From: Candidatus Nomurabacteria bacterium
GTDB lineage: Bacteria > Patescibacteriota > Minisyncoccia > Phycocordibacterales > UBA9973
Direction: 5' to 3'
Assembly: GCA_023898605.1 (NCBI GenBank)
Contig: CP060230.1
Coordinates: forward strand, 530,444 to 594,443
Length of the DNA: 64,000 bases
In this document: in pieces, positions 1 to 57,969 of the stretch
Layout: every line of letters starts with the position of its first letter
Position numbering within the stretch: the first letter of the stretch is position 1
Position numbers and translations under genes: made by a program
The notes under the pieces: generated by a model
What the model was told of the DNA's origin: nothing
The model's database searches: none
Seen by the model: only the letters and a program-made list of their open reading frames with translations

Positions 1-2
1 TC

Positions 3-305
3 ATGAATCACCTCACTGACGAAGATCATGACAAGTATCTCTCTGAAGTTAATAGGGTTTTGAAAACAGGAGGACATTTCTTGCTTTTTGTTTTGTCCAA
101 AGAAACTGCAAAATACTTAAACCACTTCCCTTCACAAGAAGAAGGAAATCATTTTGAGTTTCATGACACTCATTATCACTTTTTTACAAAATCAGACCTT
201 GAAAAAATGCTTTCAAAATATTTTGAAATAATAGATTACAAAAGTCTTCCAAGTCTCGGACAAGAAAAAGCAACGTTTCATAGATTTGTTCTGAAAAAAA
301 TATAA
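3..305 (+). CDS. C-terminal fragment of a class I SAM-dependent methyltransferase (5' end outside the window)
   Basis: The translation VLKTGGHFLLFVLSKE fits the MTase post-motif region. The ORF runs off the window start and is followed by a hairpin terminator at 315-337. Confidence 0.45.
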   Translation: MNHLTDEDHDKYLSEVNRVLKTGGHFLLFVLSKETAKYLNHFPSQEEGNHFEFHDTHYHFFTKSDLEKMLSKYFEIIDYKSLPSLGQEKATFHRFVLKKI

Positions 306-340
306 AAAACAAAACCCCGCACACGGCGGGGTTTTTACCA
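305..340. terminator. Bidirectional rho-independent terminator
   Basis: Hairpin CCCCGC-ACAC-GGCGGGG (315-331) with an A-run on the left and a T-run on the right. It would terminate both the + strand MTase gene and the minus-strand ncRNA candidate. Confidence 0.6.
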
Positions 341-790
341 AAACAGGTTTCCAACGGACGGAGAACCTGTAAAAGGTAGCAACCCATCCGCATTACAACT
401 ATGGCGTTTGTTGTCTCTGGCGGGTTGGGCTGCTTATCTTGCGACAAATAAATGTCGCGAATTTTTAAAAGGAAGGTAGAGGTGCGCAATTCTCCGAGCG
501 CACCTCCTCAACTGCGTGTTGAGCTTACCGAAACCAAAGGACCTTTTTGAGCACAATGCGGCTCCTGGACTGCTATGGATGATGTCCGATGTCCAAACCC
601 TATATAATACAGGCATTAACTGGTTCAATGGAGCGGACCTCAAGGATCCTATGCAACTCCTTCCCAAATACCTGCGTGGGGGTTACTGGTCTTCAAGATT
701 AGATAGAATGCTCAAAAATAATAACACCCTACCACCTTCTTGTTTTCGGCCTTTTTACCTCCTTTTGTTCTCAAGAGAACAGTCGACTTG
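336..790 (-). ncRNA. Candidate structured non-coding RNA, possibly RNase P RNA (rnpB-like)
   Basis: This ~450-nt GC-enriched stretch has no convincing ORF; only short overlapping ORFs appear on both strands. A consensus promoter lies upstream on the minus strand and the terminator at 305-340 lies downstream. The minus strand carries GAGGTCCGCTCCATTG (compare CR-I AAGUCCGGGCUCCAUAG). It also carries GGTAAG...GGTGCGC-loop-GCGCACC (compare GGUAAGGGUGAAAGGGUGCGGUAAGAGCGCACC). Confidence 0.35.
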
Positions 791-796
791 TGATAG

Positions 797-825
797 ATTA
801 TATACCACCTATTTACTTTTGTCAA
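797..825 (-). promoter_or_regulatory. Consensus sigma70-type promoter on the minus strand (TTGACA-17-TATAAT)
   Basis: The minus strand reads cTTGACAaaagtaaataggtggtaTATAATc. The -35 is at 820-825 and the -10 at 797-802, with a 17-bp spacer. It points into the ncRNA candidate. Confidence 0.5.
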
Positions 826-854
826 GTATTTATATTTTGGAATAAAAAGACCCG

Positions 855-1256
855 CTAACTCGCGAGTCTTAGTTTTACATACACTAGACTTCTTATCGGA
901 AATCTCCAGCCAAGCATGTTGTTATCTTCACCAGTAAAAAGATGCTGATGTGTGTTTGGCGGGGCCTTTGCCTGATGTATGTTTATGAGAAGTTCGTTGT
1001 TTTCGATAAACAAAAACATTTCTTCCGAAGAAAACTCTTCCCTTTTCGGTTTACACAAGTGTATGTGTCCACCTACTTTTTGAAGACCAACTTCTTCTAG
1101 AAGTTTCATTATCTTTTGCCAGAATTCCTTGGATTCTTTTTTGGTTAAGTTTTTGGGTTTCGCTATGCGTAGATATCCTTTTTTGCAAAAGGTGTACTTG
1201 ACCTCATTCTTTATGAGCAAATCAAGTATGGATTTCCCTTCTCGGTTCATTTTCAA
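855..1256 (-). CDS. Hypothetical protein; the C-terminal half has a weak YcfA/HicA-like motif (KLLEEVGLQKVGGHIHLCKP)
   Basis: 133-aa ORF. Resemblance to the HicA GSHH region is only approximate. Confidence 0.35.
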   Translation of the reverse strand: MKMNREGKSILDLLIKNEVKYTFCKKGYLRIAKPKNLTKKESKEFWQKIMKLLEEVGLQKVGGHIHLCKPKREEFSSEEMFLFIENNELLINIHQAKAPPNTHQHLFTGEDNNMLGWRFPIRSLVYVKLRLAS

Positions 1257-1331
1257 AAAGAGATTGATTCCCTTTTAGTATATATATACATATCCGTAAA
1301 ATCAAACCTTTTATATGGTAAACTTCTACCA

Positions 1332-1466
1332 TGAGAATCATATCTTGGAACCCCGAACAATCTCTCACAAGTTCGAGATTTTACGGGGCGAGAAGTGGTC
1401 ACTATTTTATTCGCAGCTCAATAAAGTGTTAAAATATTTTTATGTTGAGAATCATATCTTGGAACC
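1332..1466 (-). mobile_element. Small GC-hairpin insertion (copy A) with 21-bp direct target duplication at the 5' end of xth
   Basis: TGAGAATCATATCTTGGAACC occurs at 1332-1352 and again at 1446-1466. The 93-bp insert between them carries TTCTCGCCCCGTA on the minus strand, an inner hairpin and TTGTTCGGGG. The module architecture matches copies at 17297-17400 and 60916-61019. Confidence 0.55.
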
Positions 1467-2278
1467 TAAACGGTATAAGGGCTGTACACAAAAAGGGCTT
1501 ATTTCTACCTCTAATAGAAAAATATGACCCAGACATAATATGTCTACAAGAAACAAAGTCAGAAAAAGATCAGATAGATATAGATTTGCCTTCTTATGAA
1601 GAGTTTTGGAATAGTGCAGAAAAACGCGGTTATAGCGGTACTGCTATATTTGTAAAAAAATCTACAAAACTCCCAAAAACCAAAAAAGTTTTGTTCGACA
1701 TACCAGAAAAAATTGAGAAGAAGTACAAATCACTCAAGGACACATACGGAGATCCAAATCGTGAAGGAAGAGTTATTGCTCTAGAAACAGAAAAGTTTTT
1801 TTTAGTAGATGTATATACTCCAAACGCAAAAGACGATCTTTCGCGCGTCTCTCTCCGACACAACAAGTGGGACCCAGCTTTTCTGGAATATGTAAAAAGT
1901 CTCGCAAATCCTTCGACTGGCTCAGGACAGGGAAAGCCAGTTATATTTTGTGGAGACTTGAATGTTGCTCATACTGAGATAGATCTTGCTCGCCCAAAGC
2001 AAAATGTTGGAAAGAAAGGTTATACAAACGAAGAACGAGAAGGTATAGACAATATAATAGATAGCGGTTTTGTCGACGCGTTTAGAATTTTTGAAAAAAG
2101 TGGTGGACACTATACTTGGTGGAGCCACTTTGCAAAAGCACGCGAGAGAAACGTCGGCTGGAGAATAGACTACTTTTTTGTTTCGAAAAACCTTGTGAGT
2201 AAGGTCAAAGACTGCAAGCACCTTACCGACTATATGGGCTCAGACCATTGCCCGATCATGATAGACATCATGATTTAG
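1442..2278 (+). CDS. xth: Exodeoxyribonuclease III (ExoIII/APE1 family AP endonuclease)
   Basis: The N-terminus MLRIISWNLNGIRA...CLQETK and the C-terminal SDHCPI are typical of the Xth family. The gene has 278 aa. Confidence 0.9.
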   Translation: MLRIISWNLNGIRAVHKKGLFLPLIEKYDPDIICLQETKSEKDQIDIDLPSYEEFWNSAEKRGYSGTAIFVKKSTKLPKTKKVLFDIPEKIEKKYKSLKDTYGDPNREGRVIALETEKFFLVDVYTPNAKDDLSRVSLRHNKWDPAFLEYVKSLANPSTGSGQGKPVIFCGDLNVAHTEIDLARPKQNVGKKGYTNEEREGIDNIIDSGFVDAFRIFEKSGGHYTWWSHFAKARERNVGWRIDYFFVSKNLVSKVKDCKHLTDYMGSDHCPIMIDIMI

Positions 2279-2364
2279 GGACATTGCCCGATCATGCTAG
2301 ACATAAATATATAATTTTGCTCGGAACGCCACTTTTAGCCTTATTTATATGTCTTTTTAATACT

Positions 2365-2393
2365 TGACAAATTGTATTACTATGTGCTATAAT
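2365..2393 (+). promoter_or_regulatory. Sigma70 promoter TTGACA-17-TGcTATAAT
   Basis: -35 at 2365-2370, -10 at 2388-2393 with an extended TG. It sits 40 bp upstream of the lipoprotein gene. The 15-mer tgctataatataagg also occurs at 50472-50486 upstream of the ECF sigma gene. Confidence 0.5.
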
Positions 2394-2435
2394 ATAAGGG
2401 ATAAGTTTAAATTCGAACCTTAAAACAAAAGCGAA

Positions 2436-3242
2436 ATGAAAAGAAACATTTTCTTTCTCGCAATCGTCGCCGTTGCGGCGCTTGCATTTTCTTCCTGTGG
2501 TCAGAAAGACTCTGGCACCACATATTACATGTTCACCGACGTTGACACCTGTGTCATGAGACATTATGAACCGGTCCTCGCACCGATCAATCTCTGCTCT
2601 GGTGGTACCAGCAGGTATCAGAAGGTGGTGGATTATACCACTGTCTACGATACCTGTATCACCAGAAAAAACCTCTGGGTTGCGGTTTACGGTAATGGAT
2701 CTGTTGTGGTTTACGACAACAATCGGAACCCACTGCCTGGAAATGGTAGTGTGGACATAACGAATCCCGGAACTCCCGTTCCTGGAATCGGTTTTGTTCC
2801 TCCAAATCCTGGAGTAAGTGCTCCTGGTTCTGGTTCCGGTGGTGGTGGAAATGAAACATGGAACAAGATCTGGCCATGGCTGATAGCTGCTCTCGTAGCT
2901 GTACTGGCTTGGTCATTCATTTCCCTACGTCATCAGAAAAGCCGTGACGCAGAGCAGCGCCGGCGTCATGCAGATAATGCCGAAGCTGAGCGTTTGCGTT
3001 CCGCAAGGATCACCAACGACCAGGCTGAGGAAAATCTTCGCGCTCAAAGAGCGCGAACCCAACAAGAGGCAGACGATCACGTTTCCCAAAGGAAACTGAA
3101 CGCCATCCTCGCAGTGATGGATAAGGTTCAAAAGGATGGTTCTGACGATCGTGTCACTTACCAAAACGGTGATGAGATATATATCATCGAGTCCAGTGCT
3201 CATCCGGCCAAGGATCCTAATGATGAACCCCAAAAAGACTGA
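2436..3242 (+). CDS. Lipoprotein (signal peptide plus lipobox FSSC), Gly/Pro-rich, with one TM segment and a charged C-terminal region
   Basis: N-terminus MKRNIFFLAIVAVAALAFSSCGQ. The middle section has GSGSGGGG low complexity. Confidence 0.6.
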   Translation: MKRNIFFLAIVAVAALAFSSCGQKDSGTTYYMFTDVDTCVMRHYEPVLAPINLCSGGTSRYQKVVDYTTVYDTCITRKNLWVAVYGNGSVVVYDNNRNPLPGNGSVDITNPGTPVPGIGFVPPNPGVSAPGSGSGGGGNETWNKIWPWLIAALVAVLAWSFISLRHQKSRDAEQRRRHADNAEAERLRSARITNDQAEENLRAQRARTQQEADDHVSQRKLNAILAVMDKVQKDGSDDRVTYQNGDEIYIIESSAHPAKDPNDEPQKD

Positions 3243-3382
3243 TCTCCTTCAGAGGATCAAAGCCCCGAGTAAAATCGGGGCTTTCTTTTATTTAAAATAC
3301 GAAAATCAAACATCATTTATTTTGCAGCAACCTTGTAGAGTTAAATTATAAATTATAAATATAATATTATATTTATAATTTT

Positions 3383-3420
3383 ACATTTATTTAACAACAC
3401 GACCGTGTTGTTAAATAAAT
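3383..3420. promoter_or_regulatory. 38-bp near-perfect palindrome (ATTTATTTAACAACACG-AC-CGTGTTGTTAAATAAAT)
   Basis: 18-2-18 inverted repeat immediately 3' of the PaaX-like gene. It is related to the palindrome at 4025-4062 5' of the same gene and to the ACACG/CGTGT palindromes at 8880-8932. Confidence 0.45.
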
Positions 3421-3442
3421 AAAAAAAAAGATTATTTTTTAA

Positions 3443-4024
3443 TTAACTTAGGTCAAACTTTTTCTTCCAATACTCCTCGTTGTCTATTTTTTCAGCTAAA
3501 ATATAATTTACATTATATCCGAAACCAAACTTATTTTTTGATAAAGATATAAACTCTTCTGCATCATAAGGATATATCCATATACTATTTTGAAACTTTT
3601 GAAAACCAAATTTTTTTAAATTAGTTCTAAACAAATCTCTTTTTGATCTGTTATTTTCGTAAACATCAAAAGAAACCAGTCTCCACTTTTTGTCCCATTT
3701 TTTACTGGTATTTTTATTTGGGAAAATCCCCAGTCTTTCTTTTCCACTTTTTGTTATAATAACTTTTATCTTTTCGCCACTATTTATTTTTTGTAAATAA
3801 CCTTTTTGAATGAGTGAATCAAAAACTTTATTATAACTATTCTTTTTTTGAGGAGTTATATCACCGACTCCTATTTTTTGTAGTATAGATTTTTGAGAAA
3901 AAATCGAGTCTTTTTGGTTTGCGTATAAAATTATTGGGTTTTCATATACAAAGTTTAATACTTTTAAAATATTTTTTCCTAACCTTACTTTTTCAAGTTT
4001 CTTTTTTTCTTTTATCTTTTTCAC
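3443..4024 (-). CDS. PaaX-family-like transcriptional regulator (N-terminal wHTH; C-terminal W-D-K-K-W-R-L-V-S-F-D motif)
   Basis: WDKKWRLVSFDVYENNRSKRDLFRTNLKKFGFQKFQNSIWIYP matches the PaaX signature WDGxWRLVxFxIPE..R..R..L...L..LGF..LQ.SVWI.P. The N-terminus looks like a winged helix. Confidence 0.6.
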   Translation of the reverse strand: MKKIKEKKKLEKVRLGKNILKVLNFVYENPIILYANQKDSIFSQKSILQKIGVGDITPQKKNSYNKVFDSLIQKGYLQKINSGEKIKVIITKSGKERLGIFPNKNTSKKWDKKWRLVSFDVYENNRSKRDLFRTNLKKFGFQKFQNSIWIYPYDAEEFISLSKNKFGFGYNVNYILAEKIDNEEYWKKKFDLS

Positions 4025-4062
4025 TATTTAAATAGTAACACGATCGTATTGTTATTTAAATA
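4025..4062. promoter_or_regulatory. Imperfect ~38-bp palindrome (TATTTAAATAGTAACACGATCGTATTGTTATTTAAATA) directly upstream of the PaaX-like gene
   Basis: It has the same half-site family as 3383-3420 and abuts the start codon. Likely an operator. Confidence 0.4.
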
Positions 4063-4091
4063 TGAATAATTATTGACAAAATATCTATACC

Positions 4092-4325
4092 ATGTTATCT
4101 TACTACCGAACTAAACCCTCGTTTTTTATGATGAAGACTTTGAACTTGAAAGAAAAAGAAGCGCCTATTATTGTTTTTACGGCTGCTTTAGCCCTTTTGG
4201 GCTTCATTCTTTTGTTTTTGAATGCGGTCGAAATCTTTTTTAGCAACTGGCGAGTTGATCTCGCTTTGGTGTATGGATCTATTCCGGCCCACGTATTTCA
4301 GATCCTGAATAAAAGGATCGGTTAA
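4092..4325 (+). CDS. Small membrane protein (hypothetical)
   Basis: One TM helix (IIVFTAALALLGFILLFLNAV). The true start may be the internal Met. A terminator hairpin follows at 4343-4368. Confidence 0.35.
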   Translation: MLSYYRTKPSFFMMKTLNLKEKEAPIIVFTAALALLGFILLFLNAVEIFFSNWRVDLALVYGSIPAHVFQILNKRIG

Positions 4326-4424
4326 AAAACATGAAGAACCAGTGCCCCGCTTTTGTAGTGGGGCTTTTTATTTGTCTTGACAGGATATAGAAAAATTTGT
4401 ATTTTTATAAAAAAGGATTGGACT

Positions 4425-4913
4425 ATGAAAAGAAATCCATTACCGCTTTCGGATTTTGTTTTACAAATATTCCGAGAGAAGTTTCAAGAAATCATCGGAC
4501 AGAAAAAAGTTTGCCCGTACAGGATGAAGAGCTTCATTCGAAATCTCGAAAGTCATATTTCCAAAACGAATCATTTTTCTGGAATTATCGAACTTCGATA
4601 TGAAGCGTGTGTAGTACTTGCGACGGAACTACTCTTCTGGCTTGGTCTTACAAAAAGTCTAAATGACATAGAGCAAATATGTCGACTTTCTGATGATCTG
4701 CCAGAGATCAACTCAACAGCCACCGCAATGTACATAAGGTTCATTGTAGAAAATGGTGGTGAGGAGATATCTCACGAACCAAGAGAGGAGGAGATTCCTT
4801 TTTTGGATAAGCCATGGATTATGGCAAACGGAGATATCATATTCCCATCTCATGTAGAGATTACGGATGATGATCTAAACATTTTTACCTTGATTTCGAA
4901 AAAGTCGGCATGA
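4425..4913 (+). CDS. Hypothetical protein
   Basis: The ORF has an AGGA-like RBS upstream of the ATG at 4425. A hairpin terminator (GTCGGCATGACCGAC + T-run) lies at 4905-4925. Confidence 0.45.
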   Translation: MKRNPLPLSDFVLQIFREKFQEIIGQKKVCPYRMKSFIRNLESHISKTNHFSGIIELRYEACVVLATELLFWLGLTKSLNDIEQICRLSDDLPEINSTATAMYIRFIVENGGEEISHEPREEEIPFLDKPWIMANGDIIFPSHVEITDDDLNIFTLISKKSA

Positions 4914-4975
4914 CCGACTTTTTTATTTGCCTGTTTTTGATTATAGGTGTATAAATAACCAAAACAAATTGAAAT

Positions 4976-5497
4976 TTGAAACAAACTAAACCAAAGACTA
5001 TCTTTTTGACTGTTGTCGTATTGATAGTTTCTTTATTTTTTCTTGCGACTTTGAACAGTCACGTTTTTTGGGGAAAGGTAAGCAATTATGGAGTCTTGAT
5101 GACGCTTTTTGTCTCGACTCTGAACCTGTTTCTCGGGTGGCAAGTTGTGTATCCGTCATATCTTTTTAAAAAAGATTTACCAAAAAAGAAGAGGGTTTAT
5201 ATAACAACAATCTTGTCTATAGTTTTGGTTATTTACGGTCTTCAGTACTTGGATTCTGATGAATCAAGAATAGAAGGAGTGATTTTTGCCATAAGAGATC
5301 TCGGCTTCAACCTTTTTGGTATTAGAGCTGATCATTTCTGGCAAAATATTGCTGACGCTGCAAAAGAGGGATTCCCGTTCATAAAATGGGAGTTTATTTT
5401 GTACAAGGCAAATCTTTCTTTTTGGTTTATAAGATACCTAGTTATCGTAAGACCAAAAGTACAGGAAAAAATGAAGAGAAAAAAGAAACAACCATAG
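4976..5497 (+). CDS. Hypothetical integral membrane protein
   Basis: Several hydrophobic helices. Followed by a terminator hairpin at 5499-5520. Confidence 0.45.
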   Translation: MKQTKPKTIFLTVVVLIVSLFFLATLNSHVFWGKVSNYGVLMTLFVSTLNLFLGWQVVYPSYLFKKDLPKKKRVYITTILSIVLVIYGLQYLDSDESRIEGVIFAIRDLGFNLFGIRADHFWQNIADAAKEGFPFIKWEFILYKANLSFWFIRYLVIVRPKVQEKMKRKKKQP

Positions 5498-5548
5498 ACC
5501 CGTAACCTCGGGTCTTTTATTTTGAAAAATCCCCGCTGTTGCAGGGAT

Positions 5549-5968
5549 TTATTTACATATTTCTTTATAGAGAGGATCGTTCTCGTTCTTGTCTACAAGA
5601 TCAAGCCAACCTTCTCCTTTTATCTCAACAGACCATACTCCGATTCTCAGAGAGAACCTATAGACTCTACCTTTCCAGTTGGTGTATAGAAACTCTTCCC
5701 TTTTGGAAAAGTCTCCCACCACTGATAGGTAATCCGATCCAAAAGCACACGGTTTTTCTGTGCTTATGAAAACAGACGAATCGTTTGGAAGCATGAAGTA
5801 GAATATTCCAGTTACTGGATCAAACTCCCAGTGTATAGTTTTTTCTACTTCTAACATCCAAGCATCTTCGGACTCTATTTCCTTGTCGAAAAGATGCCTA
5901 GCGTCTTCTTGTGCTATCGATATGGTGTTGAGAGAAAGAAAAAGTACAAACATACTCAATCCTCTCAT
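5549..5968 (-). CDS. Secreted hypothetical protein (signal peptide MRGLSMFVLFLSLNTISIAQ)
   Basis: N-terminal signal peptide in a 139-aa ORF. Confidence 0.45.
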   Translation of the reverse strand: MRGLSMFVLFLSLNTISIAQEDARHLFDKEIESEDAWMLEVEKTIHWEFDPVTGIFYFMLPNDSSVFISTEKPCAFGSDYLSVVGDFSKREEFLYTNWKGRVYRFSLRIGVWSVEIKGEGWLDLVDKNENDPLYKEICK

Positions 5969-6057
5969 TTGTTAATGTTTTTCTCACATTCTCATAATCA
6001 CCATGTTTAGTCAATAAAAAACACCCTCGAGTACAATCGAGGGTGTTTTTTATTGAC

Positions 6058-21688: not shown

Positions 21689-22057
21689 ATGGAAAATATT
21701 CCTGATTACAATCTAGAAGTAAAAGACAAAGTTTTTGGCGGAGGATCTTCTTCTAAAGAAACTGTTTCTATTCCTGAAGAAGGAGCTTCGAATCCTACAC
21801 CCACCATAACTCCAAATGTAGAAGACCACCATCCGCACATGAAGAAAAGACATGTCTTTATTATTGCACTAGCTCTGGTTTTGATAGCAGGAGTTGCTGT
21901 TTTGTATTCTAAGTTCGGTGATTTTTCCAAAAAACAAGACGGACTATCAGACGCTCAAAAACAAGCAATAATAAATGATCTAAACCAAGAAACTGGACCA
22001 GTTACTTTTACTCAAGAAGAAAAGAAGCAAATATTAGATAGTGTAAGTACTCAATAA
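21689..22057 (+). CDS. Hypothetical membrane-anchored protein
   Basis: Single TM helix VFIIALALVLIAGVAVLY. Confidence 0.4.
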   Translation: MENIPDYNLEVKDKVFGGGSSSKETVSIPEEGASNPTPTITPNVEDHHPHMKKRHVFIIALALVLIAGVAVLYSKFGDFSKKQDGLSDAQKQAIINDLNQETGPVTFTQEEKKQILDSVSTQ

Positions 22058-22058
22058 T

Positions 22059-24140
22059 ATGATAAAAAGTTTTAGCAAAATAATTCTTATATTCTCAATA
22101 CTATTTTTGTTTGGATTTAGTAAGTCTTTTGCTGGGACAGGGGACAATGTTACCGGTTGGGCGTGGTCTTCCAACATAGGTTGGATATCTTTCAACTGTG
22201 TTACAGATAGCTCTTGTGATGCCGGGACACTTTTTGATGATCCTGGAGCAGATGGGACACTCGAAGGTCCTGGCGGAGACACTATTCCAGGAACAGAAGA
22301 CACAGGAGGAACAGATGCTGGAACAGGATTTATAGAAAATTCTTGGAGGATGCTTGTTAATAAAACTATAGAGTCTTTCGATACTGCTTTTGTTTCACCT
22401 ACATATAAAATATACAAAAAACTCTCTTATCTTATAAAAGATACTCTTTCTCCAGAGACTATATACGCAGATGATCTAGATGGGATTTCTCCTCCTGGAG
22501 TTGATTATGGAGTAAACATAGATCCTCTGACAGGAAGTATGTCTGGTTATGCATGGAGTGAAAATATAGGTTGGATTTCTTTCAACGAATCTTCAGGATG
22601 CCCCGGAGAAGGTATTTGTAGTCCTAGTATGGACCTTGGAACTGGCGCACTAAAAGGTTGGGCAAAGGCAATAAACGGAAACACATCTGACGACGGTTGG
22701 GATGGGTGGATCTCTCTTTCTTGTAAGAACCACGATTTGGTTATTTGTTTTCCAAGCTACAAGGTTAAGTTTGATCTTGGAACAGGTGCAACAAGCGGTA
22801 CAGATAGATGGGCATGGGGAAGCGATGTTATAGGATGGGTATATTTTGGAGATGTTGTTGTTGATCTACCTCAGCCAACACTTTCTCTCGTTGCTACTCC
22901 AAATATTGTTTCTGCTGGCGGATCTACTTCACTTTCTTGGACATCTACAAGTACTACTTCTTGTAGCGCATCTTCTTCTGACGCACTTTGGACCGGTACA
23001 AAACCTACAAACTCTATAGCACCGGAGTCAGTTATACCTTCTGGCGATATCGTCCTTACAGATGAGTTTGGAGATATACACTATTACACAAAATATGTGA
23101 TGGATTGCGATACAACAACAGGTGAACCGATTTCTTCAGAAGAATATGTAGAAGTTATATACGAAGATGGTGTTTCAGCTGGAAGTTTGGTTCTACAAGC
23201 ATCTCCAACAATTGCTTCTGGTGACAACGGATACAAAGTAAAACTTACTTGGTATTCTCCTACAGCTACAACACTCACATCTTGTGTTGCAAACTCTTAC
23301 TCTATAGCAACTGGAACAGACGTCCCTCTAACTGGAACTGGCTGGACAGGACCACAAACATCACTAACAGCTACAAACTCTTACACCGCAAGTACTCCGG
23401 GTGAAACTATATTTGTTCCAGAAAATCCGACAAAATACTCTATAACTTGTGAAGATGTTCTTGCTAGCGAAAGCGTAACTGCAACAACCGTTGTACCTAG
23501 AGTTCTAGCGGTGCCGAGTGTAGATATATTTGCATCGAGTCCGTCTGGAACACCTGGATCATACAACGTTGATCTTTCTTGGGAACCACTAAACGTGACT
23601 TCATGTACTGCTTCTAACGAAGATGGAATATCTGGTTGGTCTGGACCAAAGTCTGCGCTACCTGGTCTCAATACTCAAAGTGACGTTAGTCTTTCTGACG
23701 GAGGGACAACTTATACCATTACTTGCTCTGGTGCTTATGGTTCTGCGAGTGATTCTGTAACAGTGTTCCCGCCTTCTGATCCTGGAGATGACGGAGATAC
23801 TTCATGTACAGATTGTTTCCCAGCTGATGGACCTGCTGTTGCGCTAACATATGCTGATTTTATTCCTGGAGTATTGGTTCCTGGATCTGTGACACTTATC
23901 TGGAAAACACAAGACGTTGTTTCTTGCGAAGCTTCTTCTACTGATACTCTCTGGACTGGGCCAAAAGCTGCAACTCCAGATGGAATATATACAGAGGTAG
24001 GGGTGCTCTATACATCACCGTTTGAAGATTACACAATTACATGTATAGGCGACGACGACTCAACAGTTTCTGACACGCTTAAGCTCAACGATTCTTCACC
24101 GAAAAACCCAATTGTAAGACCGACTTGGATAGAGTTTTAA
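22059..24140 (+). CDS. Large secreted repeat protein (G(W/Y)AWS.NIGWISFN repeats, then four ~90-aa LSW..SC.AS..W.GPK modules)
   Basis: Signal peptide. GWAWSSNIGWISFNC, GYAWSENIGWISFNE and WAWGSDVIGWVYFGD. Repeated LSWTSTS..SCSAS / LTWYSP..SCVAN / LSWEPLNVTSCTAS / LIWKTQDVVSCEAS modules. Confidence 0.65.
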   Translation: MIKSFSKIILIFSILFLFGFSKSFAGTGDNVTGWAWSSNIGWISFNCVTDSSCDAGTLFDDPGADGTLEGPGGDTIPGTEDTGGTDAGTGFIENSWRMLVNKTIESFDTAFVSPTYKIYKKLSYLIKDTLSPETIYADDLDGISPPGVDYGVNIDPLTGSMSGYAWSENIGWISFNESSGCPGEGICSPSMDLGTGALKGWAKAINGNTSDDGWDGWISLSCKNHDLVICFPSYKVKFDLGTGATSGTDRWAWGSDVIGWVYFGDVVVDLPQPTLSLVATPNIVSAGGSTSLSWTSTSTTSCSASSSDALWTGTKPTNSIAPESVIPSGDIVLTDEFGDIHYYTKYVMDCDTTTGEPISSEEYVEVIYEDGVSAGSLVLQASPTIASGDNGYKVKLTWYSPTATTLTSCVANSYSIATGTDVPLTGTGWTGPQTSLTATNSYTASTPGETIFVPENPTKYSITCEDVLASESVTATTVVPRVLAVPSVDIFASSPSGTPGSYNVDLSWEPLNVTSCTASNEDGISGWSGPKSALPGLNTQSDVSLSDGGTTYTITCSGAYGSASDSVTVFPPSDPGDDGDTSCTDCFPADGPAVALTYADFIPGVLVPGSVTLIWKTQDVVSCEASSTDTLWTGPKAATPDGIYTEVGVLYTSPFEDYTITCIGDDDSTVSDTLKLNDSSPKNPIVRPTWIEF

Positions 24141-24160
24141 TGATATAATTTCGATATAAA

Positions 24161-24883
24161 ATGAAAACAAATCTAGAAACAAAAATAAAAACACTGATAC
24201 TTTCTGCAATATTTATATCTGCTATTGGTGTTGTTGGCGCAGAAGATTTCGGTGTTTGGAACTATCCAGCCTGTGGCGGTGGAGAATGTAACACTCCAGG
24301 ACTTGTAAATGAGTCTGTTACATCACAAGGAAAAGAAGGTGATCTATATGTAGTGGCTGACGAGGATATTCCTTCTTCTTCTGGTGAAATTTATGCAGAC
24401 AGAATCGGTATATGGGGAGACTCTTTCTTGTTTGGTAGTCTAGATATAGGTGATGGAACAGAACCGTCTTCTCTTAGTGTTTTGGGAGACGTAACCCTTC
24501 ATGACAAAAGATCAGCAAACCCTCTAAATGCAGGAGTAACATATCCAGCTGACATATGTGTAGATTCAGATGGTAAAACTGTTATATGTACTGGTGATAC
24601 TGATACTGGTTTTGACCCAGAAACTTTTTCTATGCATGACTATACAACTATAGTTGAGACCGGGCTTGTAGAGGGAAACAATGTTGTTGCAACTTGTCCA
24701 GCTAGTCATCCGAATCTTATAGGTGGCGGAGGATATTGTTCATCGACAGGACTCGGAACAAGTGAGACAGTCATGAAAAGTATCCCTTATAAGAATACCG
24801 GTAGTCCAACATATAACGCATGGATGACAGACTGCGAAAACACAAATGACACTACAACTTCGTATGCAATATGTTCAATATAA
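24161..24883 (+). CDS. Secreted Cys-containing protein, paralog 1 of 3 (C..HP..IGGGGYC ... YAICSI)
   Basis: Signal/TM N-terminus and shared C-terminal motifs with the next two genes. Confidence 0.55.
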   Translation: MKTNLETKIKTLILSAIFISAIGVVGAEDFGVWNYPACGGGECNTPGLVNESVTSQGKEGDLYVVADEDIPSSSGEIYADRIGIWGDSFLFGSLDIGDGTEPSSLSVLGDVTLHDKRSANPLNAGVTYPADICVDSDGKTVICTGDTDTGFDPETFSMHDYTTIVETGLVEGNNVVATCPASHPNLIGGGGYCSSTGLGTSETVMKSIPYKNTGSPTYNAWMTDCENTNDTTTSYAICSI

Positions 24884-24885
24884 AT

Positions 24886-25596
24886 ATGAAAAATAACCTA
24901 AAGAAAAACATAAAAATAATCTCTATTGCCCTTGTTGCCGCTTTGGGTTATTCTCTATTTGCTAGTGCGTGGTCTATACCTACAGGATATCCTCCATACA
25001 GTAACAAATCTAATCCTATAAATAGTCTAAACTCTGATCAGTATAAATATGCGAACCTTTCTATTTTCGACGACACAACAACAGCTGCGATAGAGGGTTC
25101 ACTAGTTGCCGATAGATTTGAAATATTTGGTTCAGATTTTGGACCAAGCGTATTTTTCGATGCAGTAAATATAGGTCATCCAGCAATAACAACAAGTCTT
25201 GATGCGTCACTCTATATAAAAGAAAATGCTAGTATGTCTGTAACTTCACTAGACGAGGGTGTTCTAGGGGTAAACACAGACGGAGTTATGGTCACAAGAC
25301 CAAACGAGGTTGGAGATCCAGTGTTTTATAGTGCGGGTTCGACAATGACAGTAGTTTATAAAGATTTTGATACAAATAACCCGTATATGGTTTGTCCGGT
25401 AGATTATCCATATATAATCGGTGGTGGAGGATACTGTACTGGGGACGGGCTAACATCTGAAAAAATACAAAAATCAATCCCAGACTCTTTGGGCGGAAAT
25501 GTAGACGGTATAGATCATTTAGAGTACACAAACTGGGGGTTTGGATGTAAGGGTATAGGTGACAATGGTCGTATATATGCGATATGTTCAAAATAG
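24886..25596 (+). CDS. Secreted Cys-containing protein, paralog 2 of 3
   Basis: CPVDYPYIIGGGGYCTGDGL ... YAICSK. The start is taken at MKNNLKK. Confidence 0.55.
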   Translation: MKNNLKKNIKIISIALVAALGYSLFASAWSIPTGYPPYSNKSNPINSLNSDQYKYANLSIFDDTTTAAIEGSLVADRFEIFGSDFGPSVFFDAVNIGHPAITTSLDASLYIKENASMSVTSLDEGVLGVNTDGVMVTRPNEVGDPVFYSAGSTMTVVYKDFDTNNPYMVCPVDYPYIIGGGGYCTGDGLTSEKIQKSIPDSLGGNVDGIDHLEYTNWGFGCKGIGDNGRIYAICSK

Positions 25597-25598
25597 TT

Positions 25599-26327
25599 AT
25601 GAATAAAATAAACAATAAAAAAGAAATATTGAGTTTGGTAGCAGTGACTTTTGTTATTGCGATTGTTGCTGGTATAGGATCATTTGTTTCTGCATGGTCA
25701 GAACCGGGAAGTGGTTGTAACCCTCCTTCTTGTGATACTGTTTCACCGATAGACGTGAAAAATATTTCTAATAATAAATCAGGAAGAATTTTTATCCAAG
25801 ACAACACTGCAACTGGTGGAGTAGAAGAAGGTCAGGTTTCAGCTGACAGAATATATACATGGGAAGATGGATCCGTTATAAAAGGCGACACTCTTATAGG
25901 TGTGGCTGGTATAACTGGAGTTACTCCAAATTTGTTTGTAAAAAAAGATTTAGTTTTTGATCCTTATAATGAATATAATAGCCCTGGAGTATTTCCAAAA
26001 AATCTTTGTATAAATAGTACCGGAGAGATTGTCACATGTGATGCAATCCCAGAAGGTGAGGATCCGTTCTACTCATATTCTAGAGATATAACTATAGTTC
26101 ACCCCACAAGTGCACTAACCTCTGATGACAGGACAGCATATTGTCCAGCAACACACCCATATGTGATTGGTGGAGGTGGAGAGTGTTATCCAGACGGACT
26201 ATTTGATCAAAAAGGAATAAAAAGACTCGAACCTATAAAAAGTGGCGCAGCTTACTACAATGCATTCAAGATAGAATGTAGAGCCACAACATCGGAAATA
26301 GAAGTTTACGCAATCTGTTCAAAATAA
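25599..26327 (+). CDS. Secreted Cys-containing protein, paralog 3 of 3
   Basis: CPATHPYVIGGGGECYPDGL ... YAICSK. The start is taken at MNKINNKK. Confidence 0.55.
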   Translation: MNKINNKKEILSLVAVTFVIAIVAGIGSFVSAWSEPGSGCNPPSCDTVSPIDVKNISNNKSGRIFIQDNTATGGVEEGQVSADRIYTWEDGSVIKGDTLIGVAGITGVTPNLFVKKDLVFDPYNEYNSPGVFPKNLCINSTGEIVTCDAIPEGEDPFYSYSRDITIVHPTSALTSDDRTAYCPATHPYVIGGGGECYPDGLFDQKGIKRLEPIKSGAAYYNAFKIECRATTSEIEVYAICSK

Positions 26328-26332
26328 TTATA

Positions 26333-26366
26333 AAAAAAAGAGTCCCCGAGTAGTCGGGGACTTTTA
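26333..26366. terminator. Bidirectional terminator (AGTCCCCGAGTAGTCGGGGACT + T-run)
   Basis: Lies between convergent genes. Confidence 0.6.
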
Positions 26367-27692
26367 GTTTGCGATCATGAATCTGGCTGACTGACCATTT
26401 TCTGTTCGGATGAAGTATATCCCGGGCAGGTAATCAGATGTATTCAAGGTTCCTGAACTAACTTTTTCTAAAAGTTTTCCTTCTAGTGTATAGATAGTTC
26501 CAATCCCCATTAACCCACTGATTTCAAGATGATCATTTGCCGGGTTTGGATAAAGATACAATAAATTTGCATCCTTTTGATCTTCAACAGACGTAAAAGT
26601 ATTGTAAGTATCTTTCAATACCCAGATATCTCCCAACTCGTAGGAGTATTCTTGGACTTCTTCGTCAGTTGCACAGCGTAAGCCGCCTCCGAAAGTTTGC
26701 TTTGCAACAAGCCACGTATATCCTTTTGTAAAGATAACATGACAATTGCCTCCACCTCCAATCTTTGCACCCCTTTGGTCGATGAATTCGGTCCAGTCTT
26801 TGACATTGTTTGAGAACAATATCTCAGACAGCTCGTCACCGTTTCCAGGATCTTCGGTGGTTATGTAAAGAGTTTCTCCATCGGGACTATTGTATAAGTC
26901 TTCGATATCACCGAAACTTCCAAGCATGTCTTCCGAATAGTTTACATACCACCCGGCATTTGACTGTTGGTATACACCGCCACCGCTCATTCCAGCTGCA
27001 ACTGTTAGTTTACCTTGGAAGAGTTTCATGTCGAGGATCTCGATATACTCGAGAGGCCAGCCTTCCCACTCTTCACTTGCTGAAAGATCTACAAACTCTT
27101 GCGAGATGAGATCAAACTTCAGAAATGATTCGTAGTGATGGTTTTCACCGCCGATGAAAAGGTAGTCACCTTTTTGTTCGAGACACCTTACCAACGTTCC
27201 ATAAGGAAGAATGGTTGTAGTGTCTACTCCGTCCCAGAGTAATATTCTGGACCTAAATCCAAAAGTATTATCATAAGGGAGTTCTTGAACAAACAAGCAA
27301 TAACCTCTCTCTTCGTCAGCAAAGCCAAACGAAATGAAACCTTCGATACCAAATACCAAAGCCCTTGTTCCGAGAGTGAAAACTCCACCTTCTCCGAAGG
27401 TGTATTTCTCACCCTGAAAATCCAGGATCCCGTGAGTACCGTCTTTGACGGACCCCGAAAGGATGTCGTCGCCATCGAGCACAAACGCGCCATCTACAGG
27501 CATACCATTAACGTTGGTGATGTTTTTGCCGAAGCAAACAACACTGCCATCATCTTGTGTATATTGACCGTAAATGTAGGCATCGTCGTTGATCATGCCG
27601 ACAAGATTCATGTAACCCTGCACCGTTGGTGCTTGTGGGTATGCGATCGCTACTACCAGCAGCGAAAGCATCAAAAAGATGAGTTTTTTCAT
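26364..27692 (-). CDS. Secreted protein with Bacteroidetes-type T9SS C-terminal sorting domain
   Basis: Signal peptide MKKLIFLMLSLLVVAIAYPQ. The C-terminus LYPNPANDHLEISG...IYTLEGKLL....LPGIYFIRTENGQSARFMIAN matches the Por/T9SS CTD consensus. Local GC is visibly higher than the flanks. Confidence 0.65.
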   Translation of the reverse strand: MKKLIFLMLSLLVVAIAYPQAPTVQGYMNLVGMINDDAYIYGQYTQDDGSVVCFGKNITNVNGMPVDGAFVLDGDDILSGSVKDGTHGILDFQGEKYTFGEGGVFTLGTRALVFGIEGFISFGFADEERGYCLFVQELPYDNTFGFRSRILLWDGVDTTTILPYGTLVRCLEQKGDYLFIGGENHHYESFLKFDLISQEFVDLSASEEWEGWPLEYIEILDMKLFQGKLTVAAGMSGGGVYQQSNAGWYVNYSEDMLGSFGDIEDLYNSPDGETLYITTEDPGNGDELSEILFSNNVKDWTEFIDQRGAKIGGGGNCHVIFTKGYTWLVAKQTFGGGLRCATDEEVQEYSYELGDIWVLKDTYNTFTSVEDQKDANLLYLYPNPANDHLEISGLMGIGTIYTLEGKLLEKVSSGTLNTSDYLPGIYFIRTENGQSARFMIAN

Positions 27693-27834
27693 TGCTGATA
27701 GTTTTGTTTAACAAAGTTCTTCTGACTCTATAAAACTATTTTTTACTCCAAATGTCAAGCAAATTAAGGATTATTTTCCACAACACCACAAAATAAGGCA
27801 AAAAAAGGCCTTTTTGTGGTAAAATTAGCCGGTA

Positions 27835-53149: not shown

Positions 53150-54910
53150 ATGTATATTTTTTCTAGAAAAAACTTACTAAAAATTTTTATTCTGACTTGT
53201 TTTATAGCACTGCCTTTTTCGAAAGTTTTTGCAGCAGAAATATACGATGATTACAGGTATGCAGTGATACTGGAAGATAGTAGTCGTATAAATATGAAAA
53301 CCGACTACGGTGTAAATGTTTACAATAGCTCTGTTACCGGTTATGCATGGAGTGAAAATTATGGATGGATAAACTTCGATCCTTCTGGTGATGAGGGTGT
53401 AGAAAACAACAACGGAACACTTCTTGGCTACGCCTGGGGAGAAAATTTAGGATGGATAAACTTTGCTCCAACAAATGGTGGAGTAACAATAGATTCTGAC
53501 GGATATTGGCACGGTTATGCATGGAGCGAGAAAGTTGGATGGATTGCTTTCAACTGTAGCGAATCAACACTCTGTGACACATACAAAGTTAGATCACAGT
53601 GGACATCTAACGGTGCATCTGGCGGCGGCGGAGGTTCATCTGGTGGCGGATCTTCTACTACAACAGAAGAGCCGCCCGTAATACCTCCTACTGTAGAGAA
53701 TCCACCAGTAGATTCTGGAGATACTACTCCTATAAACAACAATGATAATCCTGGAAACGATGGAGACATCTCTAGCCCAGATATAGATACTCCCGTACCA
53801 CCAATTCCTCCTATAGAGGAACCAGATATTCCTCTTCCTACTGAGGACAATGTTCCAGATAACTTCAATCCTTTTTCGGACGCAGTTTTGAGTAGCATTT
53901 CTATACTTGAAGATATAATAATCTCCACACTTTCGCTTGCTGAAAACATAGTGTCTTCTCCAGAAGGAGATACAACTGTAAAAATAGTAACAACTCTAGG
54001 TATTATCTTTGCAGGTATTTCTTCTATGATATCTGTAATGTTTGCCAACCCTCTATCTATATCTGAGATAGTTTTGATACCAGTTAGACTTTGGTCACTT
54101 CTTTTGACTGCTCTTGGTATAAGAAAGAAAAACAAACCTTGGGGTGTTGTATATGATGCTGTAACAAAGCAACCACTAGACCCGGTTTACGTTACTCTTT
54201 TTGACGAGATGAATAGCGAAGTTGGGAGCACTATAACTGATATTGACGGTAGATACGGATTCTTTGTTAGTCGTGGTAGATACAGAGTAGTACCTGGTAA
54301 AACTCACTATAGTTTTCCGTCTAGTCTTATGGCCGGCAAAGACAAAGACGAACTTTATAACGATATATATCACGGAGAAATTTTTGAAATCACAAGTGAT
54401 GAATCTATTATTACAAAAAACATTCCTATGGATCCAGTTGGTTTTGACTGGAATGAATATGCAAAGAGTCAAAAAAATCTGAATCTATTCTACTCTAGAA
54501 TGGATAAATTCTTGGCAGTATTTTCAGACGTGTTGTTTGTTCTAGGTTTTGCTATTTCTATAATTGCTACAACCGTTTCTCCTGTTTTGTATAACATAAT
54601 CATAATGTCTCTATACGTAGTCATGCTATTTTTGAAAGAAACTGTTTTGAGACCAAAACCACAAGGAAGAATAATTTTTGGAGGTGAACCACTTGCTTTT
54701 GCTATTGTAAAAGTTTATGACGCAAACACCGGCATGATGATTGGTAAAAAACCTACAAATAAAAATGGAGCATTCTATCTACTAGTAGGAAAGGGAACAT
54801 ATTACTTAACTATCGACAAAAAACTAGATGACGGTACTTATCAAGAAGTACACAAAACAAGCAGTTTTGAGGCAAAAACTGGTTATATAGACCAAAAAAT
54901 ATCTTTTTAA
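53150..54910 (+). CDS. Surface/membrane protein with three GYAWSEN.GWI.F repeats, a Gly/Ser/Pro-rich linker, TM segments and a carboxypeptidase-regulatory-like beta-sandwich domain
   Basis: GYAWSENYGWINFDPS, GYAWGENLGWINFAPT and GYAWSEKVGWIAFNCS. DGRYGF and KNGAFYLLVGKGTYYLTI motifs lie near the C-terminus. Confidence 0.6.
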   Translation: MYIFSRKNLLKIFILTCFIALPFSKVFAAEIYDDYRYAVILEDSSRINMKTDYGVNVYNSSVTGYAWSENYGWINFDPSGDEGVENNNGTLLGYAWGENLGWINFAPTNGGVTIDSDGYWHGYAWSEKVGWIAFNCSESTLCDTYKVRSQWTSNGASGGGGGSSGGGSSTTTEEPPVIPPTVENPPVDSGDTTPINNNDNPGNDGDISSPDIDTPVPPIPPIEEPDIPLPTEDNVPDNFNPFSDAVLSSISILEDIIISTLSLAENIVSSPEGDTTVKIVTTLGIIFAGISSMISVMFANPLSISEIVLIPVRLWSLLLTALGIRKKNKPWGVVYDAVTKQPLDPVYVTLFDEMNSEVGSTITDIDGRYGFFVSRGRYRVVPGKTHYSFPSSLMAGKDKDELYNDIYHGEIFEITSDESIITKNIPMDPVGFDWNEYAKSQKNLNLFYSRMDKFLAVFSDVLFVLGFAISIIATTVSPVLYNIIIMSLYVVMLFLKETVLRPKPQGRIIFGGEPLAFAIVKVYDANTGMMIGKKPTNKNGAFYLLVGKGTYYLTIDKKLDDGTYQEVHKTSSFEAKTGYIDQKISF

Positions 54911-54970
54911 GAACTTAACTGTTAAAAACTAATTTTTCTGTTATTTTGACACTAATTTTGGTGTTACAAT

Positions 54971-56875
54971 ATGTGTATGTTTAGAAGAGCAAAGATTTTT
55001 GTAACGCTACTTATGATAGGGTTCTTTTGTTTTGCTGTGTACTCTTCTTATGCAACTCCTCCTTCTTCAAAATATACTGCAGGGGAAACTCTAAACCCAA
55101 CTTGTTCTCCGGGAGATACAAATTGTAGCGTCGTACCTCTAAGCATAGGAGACGAAATAGGTTCTTCTACAAGTGGCTCTATACTTTTTGCGGATTCTTC
55201 TGGTAATCTTGCTCAAGATAACTCTAAACTTTTCTGGGATGATACAAATAACAGATTTGGTATCGGAACAACTACTCCAAGTTTTGAGATATCAGTTGTC
55301 GACGCTACTTCTGATGGAGTTATAAATATAGATGCATATGCTGGTAAAAAACCAGTCTTTGGTGGTAGATCAGTAAACGGTACAACCGCTTCGCCAAGTA
55401 ATACACTTCAAAACGATATAATCGCAGAGTTTGCAGGTGCTGGTTATGGAGACACTGGATTTTCTGCTTCTTCTACTGGCTCAATTAGAATGATCGCCGC
55501 AGAAGACTTCGATGATTCTTCTTTTGGAACAAATATCTCTTTTAGAACAACAAACATAGGTTCTACATCACTTACTGCCAAGGCAATAATTACATCAGAA
55601 GGTTTATTTGGTATAGGAACAGAATCTCCGAGCGCGGTTCTGGATTTTGGCGGCTTATTTTCTCCAAGTACTACGTTTCAAACTATTCGTACAAACAACA
55701 CAATCCAACCGACAACTAGCATCTCAAACATATTTGCTATAAATAACAACATGAACATAGCCGGCTCTGCTTCGGGGATAACTTTGACAAACCTTATCGC
55801 CAACAGATCGACTATAAACACTTCTGGTTCTTGGACTGGCACTGTTGGAAGTATGTATAACTTTTATGCAAACAACGGAACAAATTCTTCTTCTGGCTCA
55901 CCAACTATAAACACTTACTACGGCTTCTATACAGAAGACCTGACTATAGGTACAAGCAACTTTGGTTTTGTTGGAGAAGTTTCTTCTGGTGGAAACAAGT
56001 GGAACCTATATATGTCTGGAACTGCTGACAATTATTTGGCGGGGGATACTGGTATCGGGGATTCGACACCGGACTATCTTCTAGATGTAGAAAATGCATC
56101 GGTAGACACCGACTTGTTTTCTCTGCGAGACTCTGACGGTGCTTGTCTACACAATCCAGAGTCTGGAGCCGAAACAGTAAGTTGTTCTTCTGATGAAAGA
56201 CTAAAGACAAATATAGAAGATGCAGACTCCGTACTTTCTTCTCTCCGAAAATACAGGATAAGAGAATATGATGTTATTGCTTCGGGTGATCACCTTGTGG
56301 GAATTATTGCGCAAGAAGCTCTCAAAACTCATCCAGAAATAGTAAATCTTGGTCCAGACGGATACTATACTGTTGACCTCCCAAACTCTTGGACACTAGT
56401 AAAAGCAATACAAGAATTGGATCAAGAAATCACAGATATCAATTCTTTCGACATAGAAACAAAAGGAAGTTTTTATAACACTTTGGTTTCTTGGCTTGGT
56501 GATAGAGCAAATGGTATTGCAGAAATATTTTCAAAGAAACTTGTTACAGAAGAACTTTGTCTGGAAGATGTTTGTATCGACAAGAATGACCTAAAGAATC
56601 TCCTAGAAAAAAATAGTGGAAGTAACACTGTTATATACGTAGGCGGAGGATCATCTTCTGGTGGTAATGAAGAAGAGAGCGATGTAGAAGATGGCGAAGG
56701 AGAAGTTTTGGGTGAAGAAATAGACAATATAGAGGAAGAGGCAGTAGAAGATGGAGCAGTAGAAGACGAAGTCATAGAGGAAGAGCCTATAGAAGAAGTT
56801 ATAGAGGAGTTACCGGTAGTAGAGGAGGAAATACCAGTAGAGTTCGAAGAGCCAACCTCTCCAGAAGGTGAATAA
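54971..56875 (+). CDS. Tail-fibre-like secreted protein with C-terminal peptidase S74 intramolecular-chaperone autoprocessing domain and acidic tail
   Basis: SDERLKTNIEDADSVLSSLRKYRIREYDV ... GIIAQEALKTHPEIV matches the S74/endosialidase chaperone domain motifs. N-terminal signal/TM. Confidence 0.55.
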   Translation: MCMFRRAKIFVTLLMIGFFCFAVYSSYATPPSSKYTAGETLNPTCSPGDTNCSVVPLSIGDEIGSSTSGSILFADSSGNLAQDNSKLFWDDTNNRFGIGTTTPSFEISVVDATSDGVINIDAYAGKKPVFGGRSVNGTTASPSNTLQNDIIAEFAGAGYGDTGFSASSTGSIRMIAAEDFDDSSFGTNISFRTTNIGSTSLTAKAIITSEGLFGIGTESPSAVLDFGGLFSPSTTFQTIRTNNTIQPTTSISNIFAINNNMNIAGSASGITLTNLIANRSTINTSGSWTGTVGSMYNFYANNGTNSSSGSPTINTYYGFYTEDLTIGTSNFGFVGEVSSGGNKWNLYMSGTADNYLAGDTGIGDSTPDYLLDVENASVDTDLFSLRDSDGACLHNPESGAETVSCSSDERLKTNIEDADSVLSSLRKYRIREYDVIASGDHLVGIIAQEALKTHPEIVNLGPDGYYTVDLPNSWTLVKAIQELDQEITDINSFDIETKGSFYNTLVSWLGDRANGIAEIFSKKLVTEELCLEDVCIDKNDLKNLLEKNSGSNTVIYVGGGSSSGGNEEESDVEDGEGEVLGEEIDNIEEEAVEDGAVEDEVIEEEPIEEVIEELPVVEEEIPVEFEEPTSPEGE

Positions 56876-56969
56876 GCCTTATTCTTTCAGGTTTTGCTTG
56901 CAAAAAATATAGATATATAGTAGAGTATCTCGGACGTGGCTTTAAGTGGTCCCGTTTTTTAGATTAAAT

Positions 56970-57389: not shown

Positions 57390-57402
57390 TATTTAGATAG
57401 AT

Positions 57403-57873: not shown

Positions 57874-57969
57874 TAAACTAAAAAGTCAAAAAATAAAAAC
57901 CTCCCTGTTGGGAGGTTTTTATTTGCAAAATTTTGGTGTTGGGTGTAGATTTACAAAAAAAGAACCAAA

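Follow-up and report, generated by a model that had tools for sequence, protein, structure and literature searches.

How does a bacterium of the candidate phyla radiation (CPR) come to encode a protein with a type A C-terminal domain (CTD), a module that is treated as diagnostic of type IX secretion system (T9SS) cargo? We address this question for a single gene, here called the CTD gene, in a stretch of 64,000 nucleotides of contig CP060230.1 (GenBank assembly GCA_023898605.1, positions 530,444 to 594,443 of the forward strand), referred to below as the window. The source, named Candidatus Nomurabacteria by NCBI, is a Nomurabacteria-like member of Candidatus Paceibacterota (CPR; now Minisyncoccota, kingdom Bacillati, in the NCBI taxonomy) from wastewater or activated sludge. 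A first-pass annotation, made from the sequence alone, had recognised the domain and offered two explanations for its presence, horizontal acquisition from a Bacteroidetes donor and a chimeric assembly. We favour another reading, at a probability of roughly 0.65: the gene encodes a genuine resident, a vertically inherited, fast-evolving and Sec-exported surface protein, whose CTD probably came from Bacteroidota long ago and now most likely functions in a cell that has no T9SS.

The protein comprises a signal peptide, an N-region, a linker and the CTD (Table 1), and its tail is confirmed as a bona fide T9SS type A CTD of the PF18962/TIGR04183 family. It scores 30.1 bits against PF18962 (Por_Secre_tail; curated cut-off 27, residues 380–435) and 25.9 bits against TIGR04183 (curated cut-off 23), and while both passes are marginal, they are reinforced by a profile match to a solved CTD, by a seven-strand model and by fold matches. 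The family profile matches the CTD of Flavobacterium johnsoniae NucA as solved in a T9SS-substrate complex (8glk_D, E 2.4e-6). The AlphaFold2 (AF2) model of the domain, whose input of 64 CTD sequences was presumably mostly of Bacteroidota type, which qualifies the fold result, forms an immunoglobulin (Ig)-like beta-sandwich of seven strands with a predicted local distance difference test (pLDDT) score of 92.4, and its best matches in the PDB are PorZ (5m11, template modelling (TM) score TMq 0.68) and the NucA CTD (8glk_D, TM 0.64), followed by the CTDs of RemZ/RemA and RgpB.

The same domain closes three orthologues from related genomes. Their PF18962 scores are 24.5, 29.6 and 40.3 bits, which places three of the four family members above the cut-off, and PNPA, G405, D420, GIY (424–426) and G433, with the PNP of motif B and the GxY of motif D among them, are invariant in all four. 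In motif E, the first basic residue is kept in three of the four orthologues and the second Lys is absent from every one, as it is from 23 of 60 comparator CTDs. Conserved CTD motif residues are surface-exposed and may form interfaces binding T9SS subunits, and the final 13 residues, in particular the conserved lysines in motif E, are needed if secretion is to be efficient (PMC10202324). Overall, the CTD is just 24–28% identical between the target and its orthologues, no more than the N-region (28–31%), and this, together with the missing T9SS context, would suit a functionless relic of an old transfer in a protein whose activity lies in the N-region alone. However, the domain is intact, untruncated and at the extreme C-terminus in all four lineages, its motif residues are invariant, and the target scores above the family cut-offs and is modelled at a pLDDT of 92; we hold a relic to be improbable.

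The locus itself is real. The same protein is found on contigs from SRR14234112, SRR14234115, ERZ28659597, ERZ28660125 and SRR6747804, drawn from two assembly collections; all five are collinear with the window over both junctions of the gene at 99.94–100% identity, and the four that were compared base by base hold no single-nucleotide polymorphism inside it. At NCBI, where the annotation pipeline had already labelled it, the identical 442-residue protein is deposited as MCA9353617.1 and USN94733.1 on two contigs (15.8 kb and 619,167 bp), and a sixth assembly, the metagenome-assembled genome (MAG) GCA_020428735.1, encodes it between the same flanking genes. A Bacteroidetes fragment joined to a CPR contig during assembly, the second of the initial explanations, would account for a base composition that differs from the flanks, and one short public contig does look hybrid at the CTD boundary; but both junctions recur in five contigs from several runs, the gene order is the same in the NCBI MAG, the protein is also present on the 619-kb contig and the same architecture is met in distant relatives, so that a chimeric assembly can for practical purposes be regarded as excluded.

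The short hybrid contig (L006; ENA ERZ28655936, scaffold_56673, 1352 bp) is an observation in its own right. Its right 616 nt, 99.7% identical to window positions 25939–26554, hold the CTD, the terminator and the end of a gene of the neighbouring array, its left 736 nt are unrelated to the window, and the junction between the two coincides with the codon that opens the YPNPA motif. On the left, a protein fragment is encoded that is 47–51% identical to two CTD proteins (P0072 and P0073), whose contigs do not resemble those of CPR, and the whole is either a chimera that arose in assembly via the conserved motif or a genuine exchange of domains where the CTD begins.

Close relatives of the full-length protein are few. 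A word-indexed protein search with the whole sequence returned only the protein itself, and an exhaustive HMMER search of 1.84 billion cluster representatives added just three full-length clusters (P0002, P0003 and P0005), about 26–31% identical to the target over their full length; no homologue of the N-region outside the clade was found among the same representatives. Searches of metagenome contigs, with the family alignment or with the exact CTD-coding DNA, gave no match, and neither did a search of genome contigs with the single protein, while the family alignment recovered one GTDB species representative only. One of the relative contigs is deposited as Candidatus Paceibacterota (GCA_031973435.1). 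The best full-length matches are in sum relatives of this genome and not Bacteroidetes, the very outcome that the first-pass annotation had set as refuting its proposal. Named matches confined to the CTD are Flavobacteriia proteins from Chryseobacterium and Hwangdonia. Three CTD matches of similar length (P0025, P0044 and P0047) were considered as distant homologues of the N-region and rejected, the alignment being confined to the CTD in each, and the closest foreign CTD (P0006) was discarded as a source of genomic context because its 511-bp contig starts with adapter sequence (L014; ENA ERZ27295584 k141_192606, where bases 9–43 are the Nextera adapter TCGTCGGCAGCGTCAGATGTGTATAAGAGACAG).

The CTD gene stands at the syntenic site in every related lineage found (three). 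In each of these relatives it converges on three paralogues of ~240–255 residues, which are preceded by a gene for ~650–690 residues and one for ~100 residues, with NusA, pyrophosphatase and trigger factor coming after; a type IV pilus operon lies on the opposite side in L008–L010, and PilB, PilC or pilin genes adjoin the CTD gene in three of the four genomes. Between the window and its relatives, the identity of the encoded proteins falls from 74–75% for PilB and 64–65% for PilC (BLASTP), and 69–74% for NusA, to 42–51% for the 693-residue array protein, 33–46% for the three array paralogues and 29–31% for the CTD protein (global alignment for the last four). The closest pair is L009–L010 for every gene (93% for NusA, 47% for the CTD protein), and the pairwise identities of the CTD protein rank like those of NusA and the array genes. 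Since the divergence of the CTD protein tracks that of its neighbours, the acquisition predates the common ancestor of these lineages, and since its identities follow the organismal pattern, the family is a fast-evolving resident.

In base composition, the gene is richer in GC than its flanks, as the first-pass annotation had stated, but the deviation is modest and not unique: its GC content is 0.433 against a mean of 0.367 (standard deviation 0.036) over the 64 open reading frames (ORFs) of the window (z 1.8), and its GC content at third codon positions (GC3) is 0.429 against 0.292 (standard deviation 0.065; z 2.1). The excess in GC3 sits in the N-region (0.44) and not in the CTD (0.35). Raised GC3 is also seen in the orthologues of two other low-GC genomes (L010, z 2.1; L009, z 1.0), the orthologue in a contig of 48.5% GC lies below the composition of its neighbours, and all four orthologues have 41–45% GC whatever the local background (36–49%). 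The raised GC and GC3 could be taken for the mark of a recent horizontal acquisition from a Bacteroidetes donor, which would also agree with a CTD family that is overwhelmingly Bacteroidota and with CTD-only matches that include Chryseobacterium and Hwangdonia. The target CTD is, further, up to 42% identical to the best foreign CTDs against 18–25% to those of its orthologues, a closeness that is biased by selection, since the foreign CTDs had been picked for matching the target best. Against an event of this kind stand the orthologues in the same slot of three diverged relatives, an N-region with no homologue outside the clade, the location of the GC3 excess outside the CTD and its recurrence in other genomes, the lack of integrase or transposase families near the gene in family scans and of meaningful repeats around it (with the closest tRNA gene at a distance of 16 kb), and the genome-wide, not gene-specific, lack of Shine-Dalgarno sequences; a recent acquisition is very improbable. 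An outlying composition together with a foreign-looking domain is insufficient to call either a transfer or a misassembly. A CTD swapped in recently onto an older gene was rejected as unsupported, the GC3 of the CTD being nearer to the genome norm than that of the N-region.

Elsewhere in the window, positions 1–6000 form a stretch of raised GC3. An ORF at 2436–3242 (+) has 49% GC (z 3.5), far more extreme than the CTD gene, and a lipoprotein-type signal (LAFSSC↓G); it and an ORF at 5549–5968 (-), with a signal peptide ending in SIA↓Q, look compositionally foreign, and between them lies an ORF of 25% GC (3443–4024) with a PaaX_M/Cas2-like domain.

The window covers about 10% of the 619-kb genome. 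Among its roughly 50 ORFs that were scanned or had precomputed Pfam hits, no member of the T9SS, Bam, Lpt or Lpx families was found, which bears out the initial observation that T9SS machinery is missing here, and three relatives likewise have none of this machinery at a distance of up to 10 kb from the gene. Run against six-frame translations of the window and of four related loci (~60 kb), the CTD profile hits this family only. The remaining content, which had rightly been described as unlike Bacteroidetes, is typical of the CPR: a CCA-adding enzyme, RNase Y, ClpP, trigger factor, NusA, PilB, PilC and pilins, TIM, PGK, RecJ, RNase H, ComEC, MgtE, a DsbD-thioredoxin protein and SOD, as well as S12, S7, EF-G and EF-Tu in an interrupted row.

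A CTD-recognising machinery of the clade's own, whether a sorting or attachment system that has escaped recognition or an unexpected outer layer containing parts derived from a T9SS, would fit the conservation of the CTD motifs over a long time, but we judge it improbable. According to the description of TIGR04183, several species with a T9SS have on average at least twenty CTD proteins per genome, whereas a single one was found in the 64-kb window and ~60 kb of related loci; no candidate genes lie nearby in four genomes, and a contig of 619 kb, probably the genome, leaves little room for a multi-gene trans-envelope system. Although T9SS core genes accompany CTD proteins "with few exceptions" (PMC10202324), which would speak for such a machinery, the rare CPR organisms with described envelopes are monoderm (PMC8871954).

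According to the reading that we favour, the CTD module was most probably acquired by an ancestor, perhaps with the rest of the gene, from a donor of the Bacteroidota or the wider Fibrobacteres-Chlorobi-Bacteroidetes (FCB) group long ago. Before at least four lineages diverged from their common ancestor, the gene already stood in the same slot, beside the five-gene array of secreted proteins, and it has evolved fast since, like its surface-protein neighbours. An ancient Bacteroidota origin of the CTD or of the whole gene is plausible, and weak clues to it may be seen in the taxonomic bias of the domain family, in the CTD-only matches from Chryseobacterium and Hwangdonia and in the signal-peptide cleavage site of the three orthologues. 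This site, A-x-A↓Q, resembles the Q-rule of Bacteroidetes signal peptides (PMC5837995), and Gln at +1 occurs in only one of about nine other signal peptides of the window; because of it, the whole gene, and not only the CTD, could be derived from Bacteroidota. After Sec export and cleavage of the signal peptide, the protein would be found outside the cell. There, the CTD would not act as an outer-membrane translocation signal, because described CPR members have one membrane and no T9SS lies near the gene; instead, the beta-sandwich tail would most likely be a handle for recognition or retention, by which the propeller-like body is kept or docked at a cell surface, and the protein is probably involved in contacts between cells, together with the neighbouring array of secreted proteins and the type IV pilus locus.

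The CTD could also mimic T9SS cargo, docking from outside onto PorV and PorU/PorZ of a Bacteroidota partner, where it might even be ligated, and so act as an adhesin. The invariance of possible T9SS-binding motifs (PMC10202324) in four orthologues that are otherwise ~30% identical agrees with this, as do the lack of an own T9SS in the window and the position of the gene between a type IV pilus locus and an array of secreted proteins. Patescibacteria attach to their hosts by means of type IV pili (PMC11880426), and the abundance of activated-sludge Patescibacteria, including operational taxonomic units (OTUs) of Parcubacteria, correlates positively with that of Chitinophagales, which are Bacteroidota (PMC9530719). 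The case is purely circumstantial, however: the conserved residues could be structural, and motif E lacks its second Lys in all four members. We know, moreover, of no case in which an exogenous CTD is recognised from outside the cell. Docking of this kind seems unlikely to us, and slightly less likely still is an epibiont that is tethered, possibly covalently, to a Bacteroidota partner (e.g., Chitinophagales) through capture of the cargo-mimicking tail by its PorV and PorU/Z.

Several points weigh against a resident protein with an old, T9SS-independent CTD. GC3 lies above the genome norm in three low-GC genomes, which old vertical inheritance followed by amelioration does not predict, and the family has only four members, so that the congruence test is weak. 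We infer the absence of a T9SS from the genome as a whole from 64 kb and from general knowledge of the radiation, and the localisation and function proposed for the protein are likewise read from its sequence. Finally, the invariant, exposed CTD motifs hint at a T9SS-like partner, and not at a generic structural role (PMC10202324).

The N-terminus of the protein looks like a Sec/signal peptidase I (SPI) signal peptide, in agreement with the initial annotation. Judged by inspection and hydrophobicity, it has two Lys, a hydrophobic core of 14 residues (mean Kyte-Doolittle value 3.19) and a predicted cleavage site of the A-x-A type after A-I-A (MKKLIFLMLSLLVVAIA↓YPQ), and equivalent N-termini are present in all three orthologues. 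The N-region that follows has no family match in Pfam or NCBIfam. Its AF2 model, based on an alignment of four sequences, contains beta strands only, with a pLDDT of 60 overall and of 70–90 at residues 90–300, and its top Foldseek matches in the PDB are all generic beta-propellers, with TM scores of 0.3–0.4; with moderate confidence, it may be described as a small beta module (about residues 46–110) followed by a beta-propeller-like body. Residues 46–110 are similar to the ~80-residue repeat unit of a large unrelated protein (P0007). The linker is the segment of lowest conservation among the orthologues.

Table 1. Coordinates of the CTD gene, its parts and its surroundings. Positions refer to the window, and for the orthologues to the respective locus.
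Feature	Position	Strand	Description	Basis
CTD-protein gene, complete	26364..27692	-	442 aa, ATG start; stop codon 26364–26366	ORF list
Signal peptide	27642..27692	-	aa 1–17 (MKKLIFLMLSLLVVAIA)	Inspection and hydrophobicity
Lineage-specific all-beta N-region	26613..27629	-	aa 22–360	AF2, Foldseek
Linker	26556..26612	-	aa 361–379, joining N-region to CTD	pLDDT < 50
T9SS type A CTD (Por_Secre_tail)	26367..26555	-	aa 380–442	Profiles, model
Bidirectional intrinsic terminator hairpin	26341..26362	.		Inverted repeat I3
Promoter-like site, candidate	27729..27758	-		Read from sequence
Five-gene neighbouring array	21689..26327	+	Convergent with CTD gene	Same array in L007, L008/L009 and L010
Orthologue, L007	8101..9432		Same slot as window gene	
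Orthologue, L009	10001..11398		Same slot as window gene	
Orthologue, L010	10001..11383		Same slot as window gene	

The CTD gene is a monocistronic unit with its own terminator, a 9-bp GC-rich hairpin with A8 and T4 on its flanks. The hairpin abuts the stop codon of the CTD gene, starts 14 nt past the stop of the last array gene and also ends the latter, so that the convergent arrangement and the shared bidirectional terminator described in the first-pass annotation both hold. At the other end of the gene, a TTGACA box at 27758–27753, ~60 nt 5' of the ATG, is followed after a spacer of 17–18 nt by an A/T-rich, -10-like hexamer ~36 nt 5' of the ATG, and the two may form a promoter; TTGACA or TTGACG boxes are also found upstream of all three orthologues. 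A consensus promoter scan did not call the TTGACA site of the CTD gene. No Shine-Dalgarno sequence precedes the gene, which had been considered as a possible Bacteroidetes signature and was rejected as such; the lack is uninformative, being shared by nearly every gene of the window.

A Shine-Dalgarno-like sequence was found before only 1 of 40 window genes, and many have a TATAAT-like box just 6–10 nt before the ATG (e.g., 21689, 24161, 28704, 35629, 41880(-) and 47200), which suggests that leaderless transcripts may be widespread among them. As to the 5' leaders of the orthologues, those of L009 and L010 have a hairpin-like element in common (GCTCAAAGATGCATATTGAGC), ~40–70 nt upstream of the start codons, and in that of L007 this position is taken by another hairpin (CGAGGAA...TTCCTCG); the shorter leader in the window has none.

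The array, which converges on the CTD gene in the window, L007, L008/L009 and L010, encodes a 122-residue membrane protein, a 693-residue secreted protein in which GW(A/I)WS.NIGWISF motifs recur and Ig-like repeats are present, and three secreted paralogues of ~240 residues. These paralogues are encoded by overlapping genes and share 31–36% identity with one another; all three carry a signal peptide as well as a Cys-rich end (IGGGGxC...YAICSK). No match to the array proteins was found in Pfam, NCBIfam or the PDB sequences. Further downstream, just before rpsL, two large secreted proteins are encoded at 53150–56875 (+), one with CarboxypepD_reg domains and the other with a Peptidase_S74 domain, which in the endosialidases of phage tail spikes is the intramolecular chaperone. 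In the S12-S7-EF-G-EF-Tu row that comes next (56946–63779, +), S7 is separated from EF-G by an ORF of 197 residues without a family match, and EF-G from EF-Tu by an ORF of 143 residues and a short-chain dehydrogenase.

We found nothing on CTDs or the T9SS in the literature on Patescibacteria, CPR or Parcubacteria. A canonical CTD that is kept, with its motifs intact, through long divergence in a CPR clade is a clean exception to the co-occurrence of these domains with the T9SS. If the rest of the genome is also free of a T9SS, either annotation pipelines mislabel a CTD fold whose role is independent of the T9SS, or an epibiont exploits the T9SS of its partner. Either outcome would refine how CTD hits from metagenomes are interpreted and would make the host range of uncultured Paceibacterota accessible to tests.

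Compared with known systems, the protein resembles the lineage-specific secreted or surface proteins that Patescibacteria encode beside type IV pilus loci in its signal peptide, its fast evolution and an N-region without family match, and differs from them in carrying a domain that is otherwise tied to a diderm-specific secretion system and in a GC3 consistently above that of its neighbours. With the type A CTD cargo of Bacteroidota (e.g., NucA and RemA of F. johnsoniae, RgpB and PorZ of Porphyromonas gingivalis), it shares the succession of signal peptide, body and terminal CTD of 60–75 residues, above-cut-off hidden Markov model (HMM) scores, the PNPA, G, D..GIY and G motifs and the predicted seven-strand fold. 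Unlike this cargo, it comes from a Candidatus Paceibacterota host, a group without a known outer membrane, with no T9SS gene in 64 kb and a single CTD protein there instead of dozens, it lacks the second Lys of motif E, and the relatives of its N-region are restricted to a narrow clade. The combination of a beta-propeller with a CTD is a common architecture of T9SS cargo in Bacteroidota, and the protein follows it with an all-beta, propeller-like body (model pLDDT 60), a linker and a CTD; unlike in the propeller-CTD proteins of Bacteroidota, however, the body has no detectable sequence relationship to any Bacteroidota protein. The CTD is a canonical member of a known family, and the body that it closes is a new, narrow and lineage-specific one.

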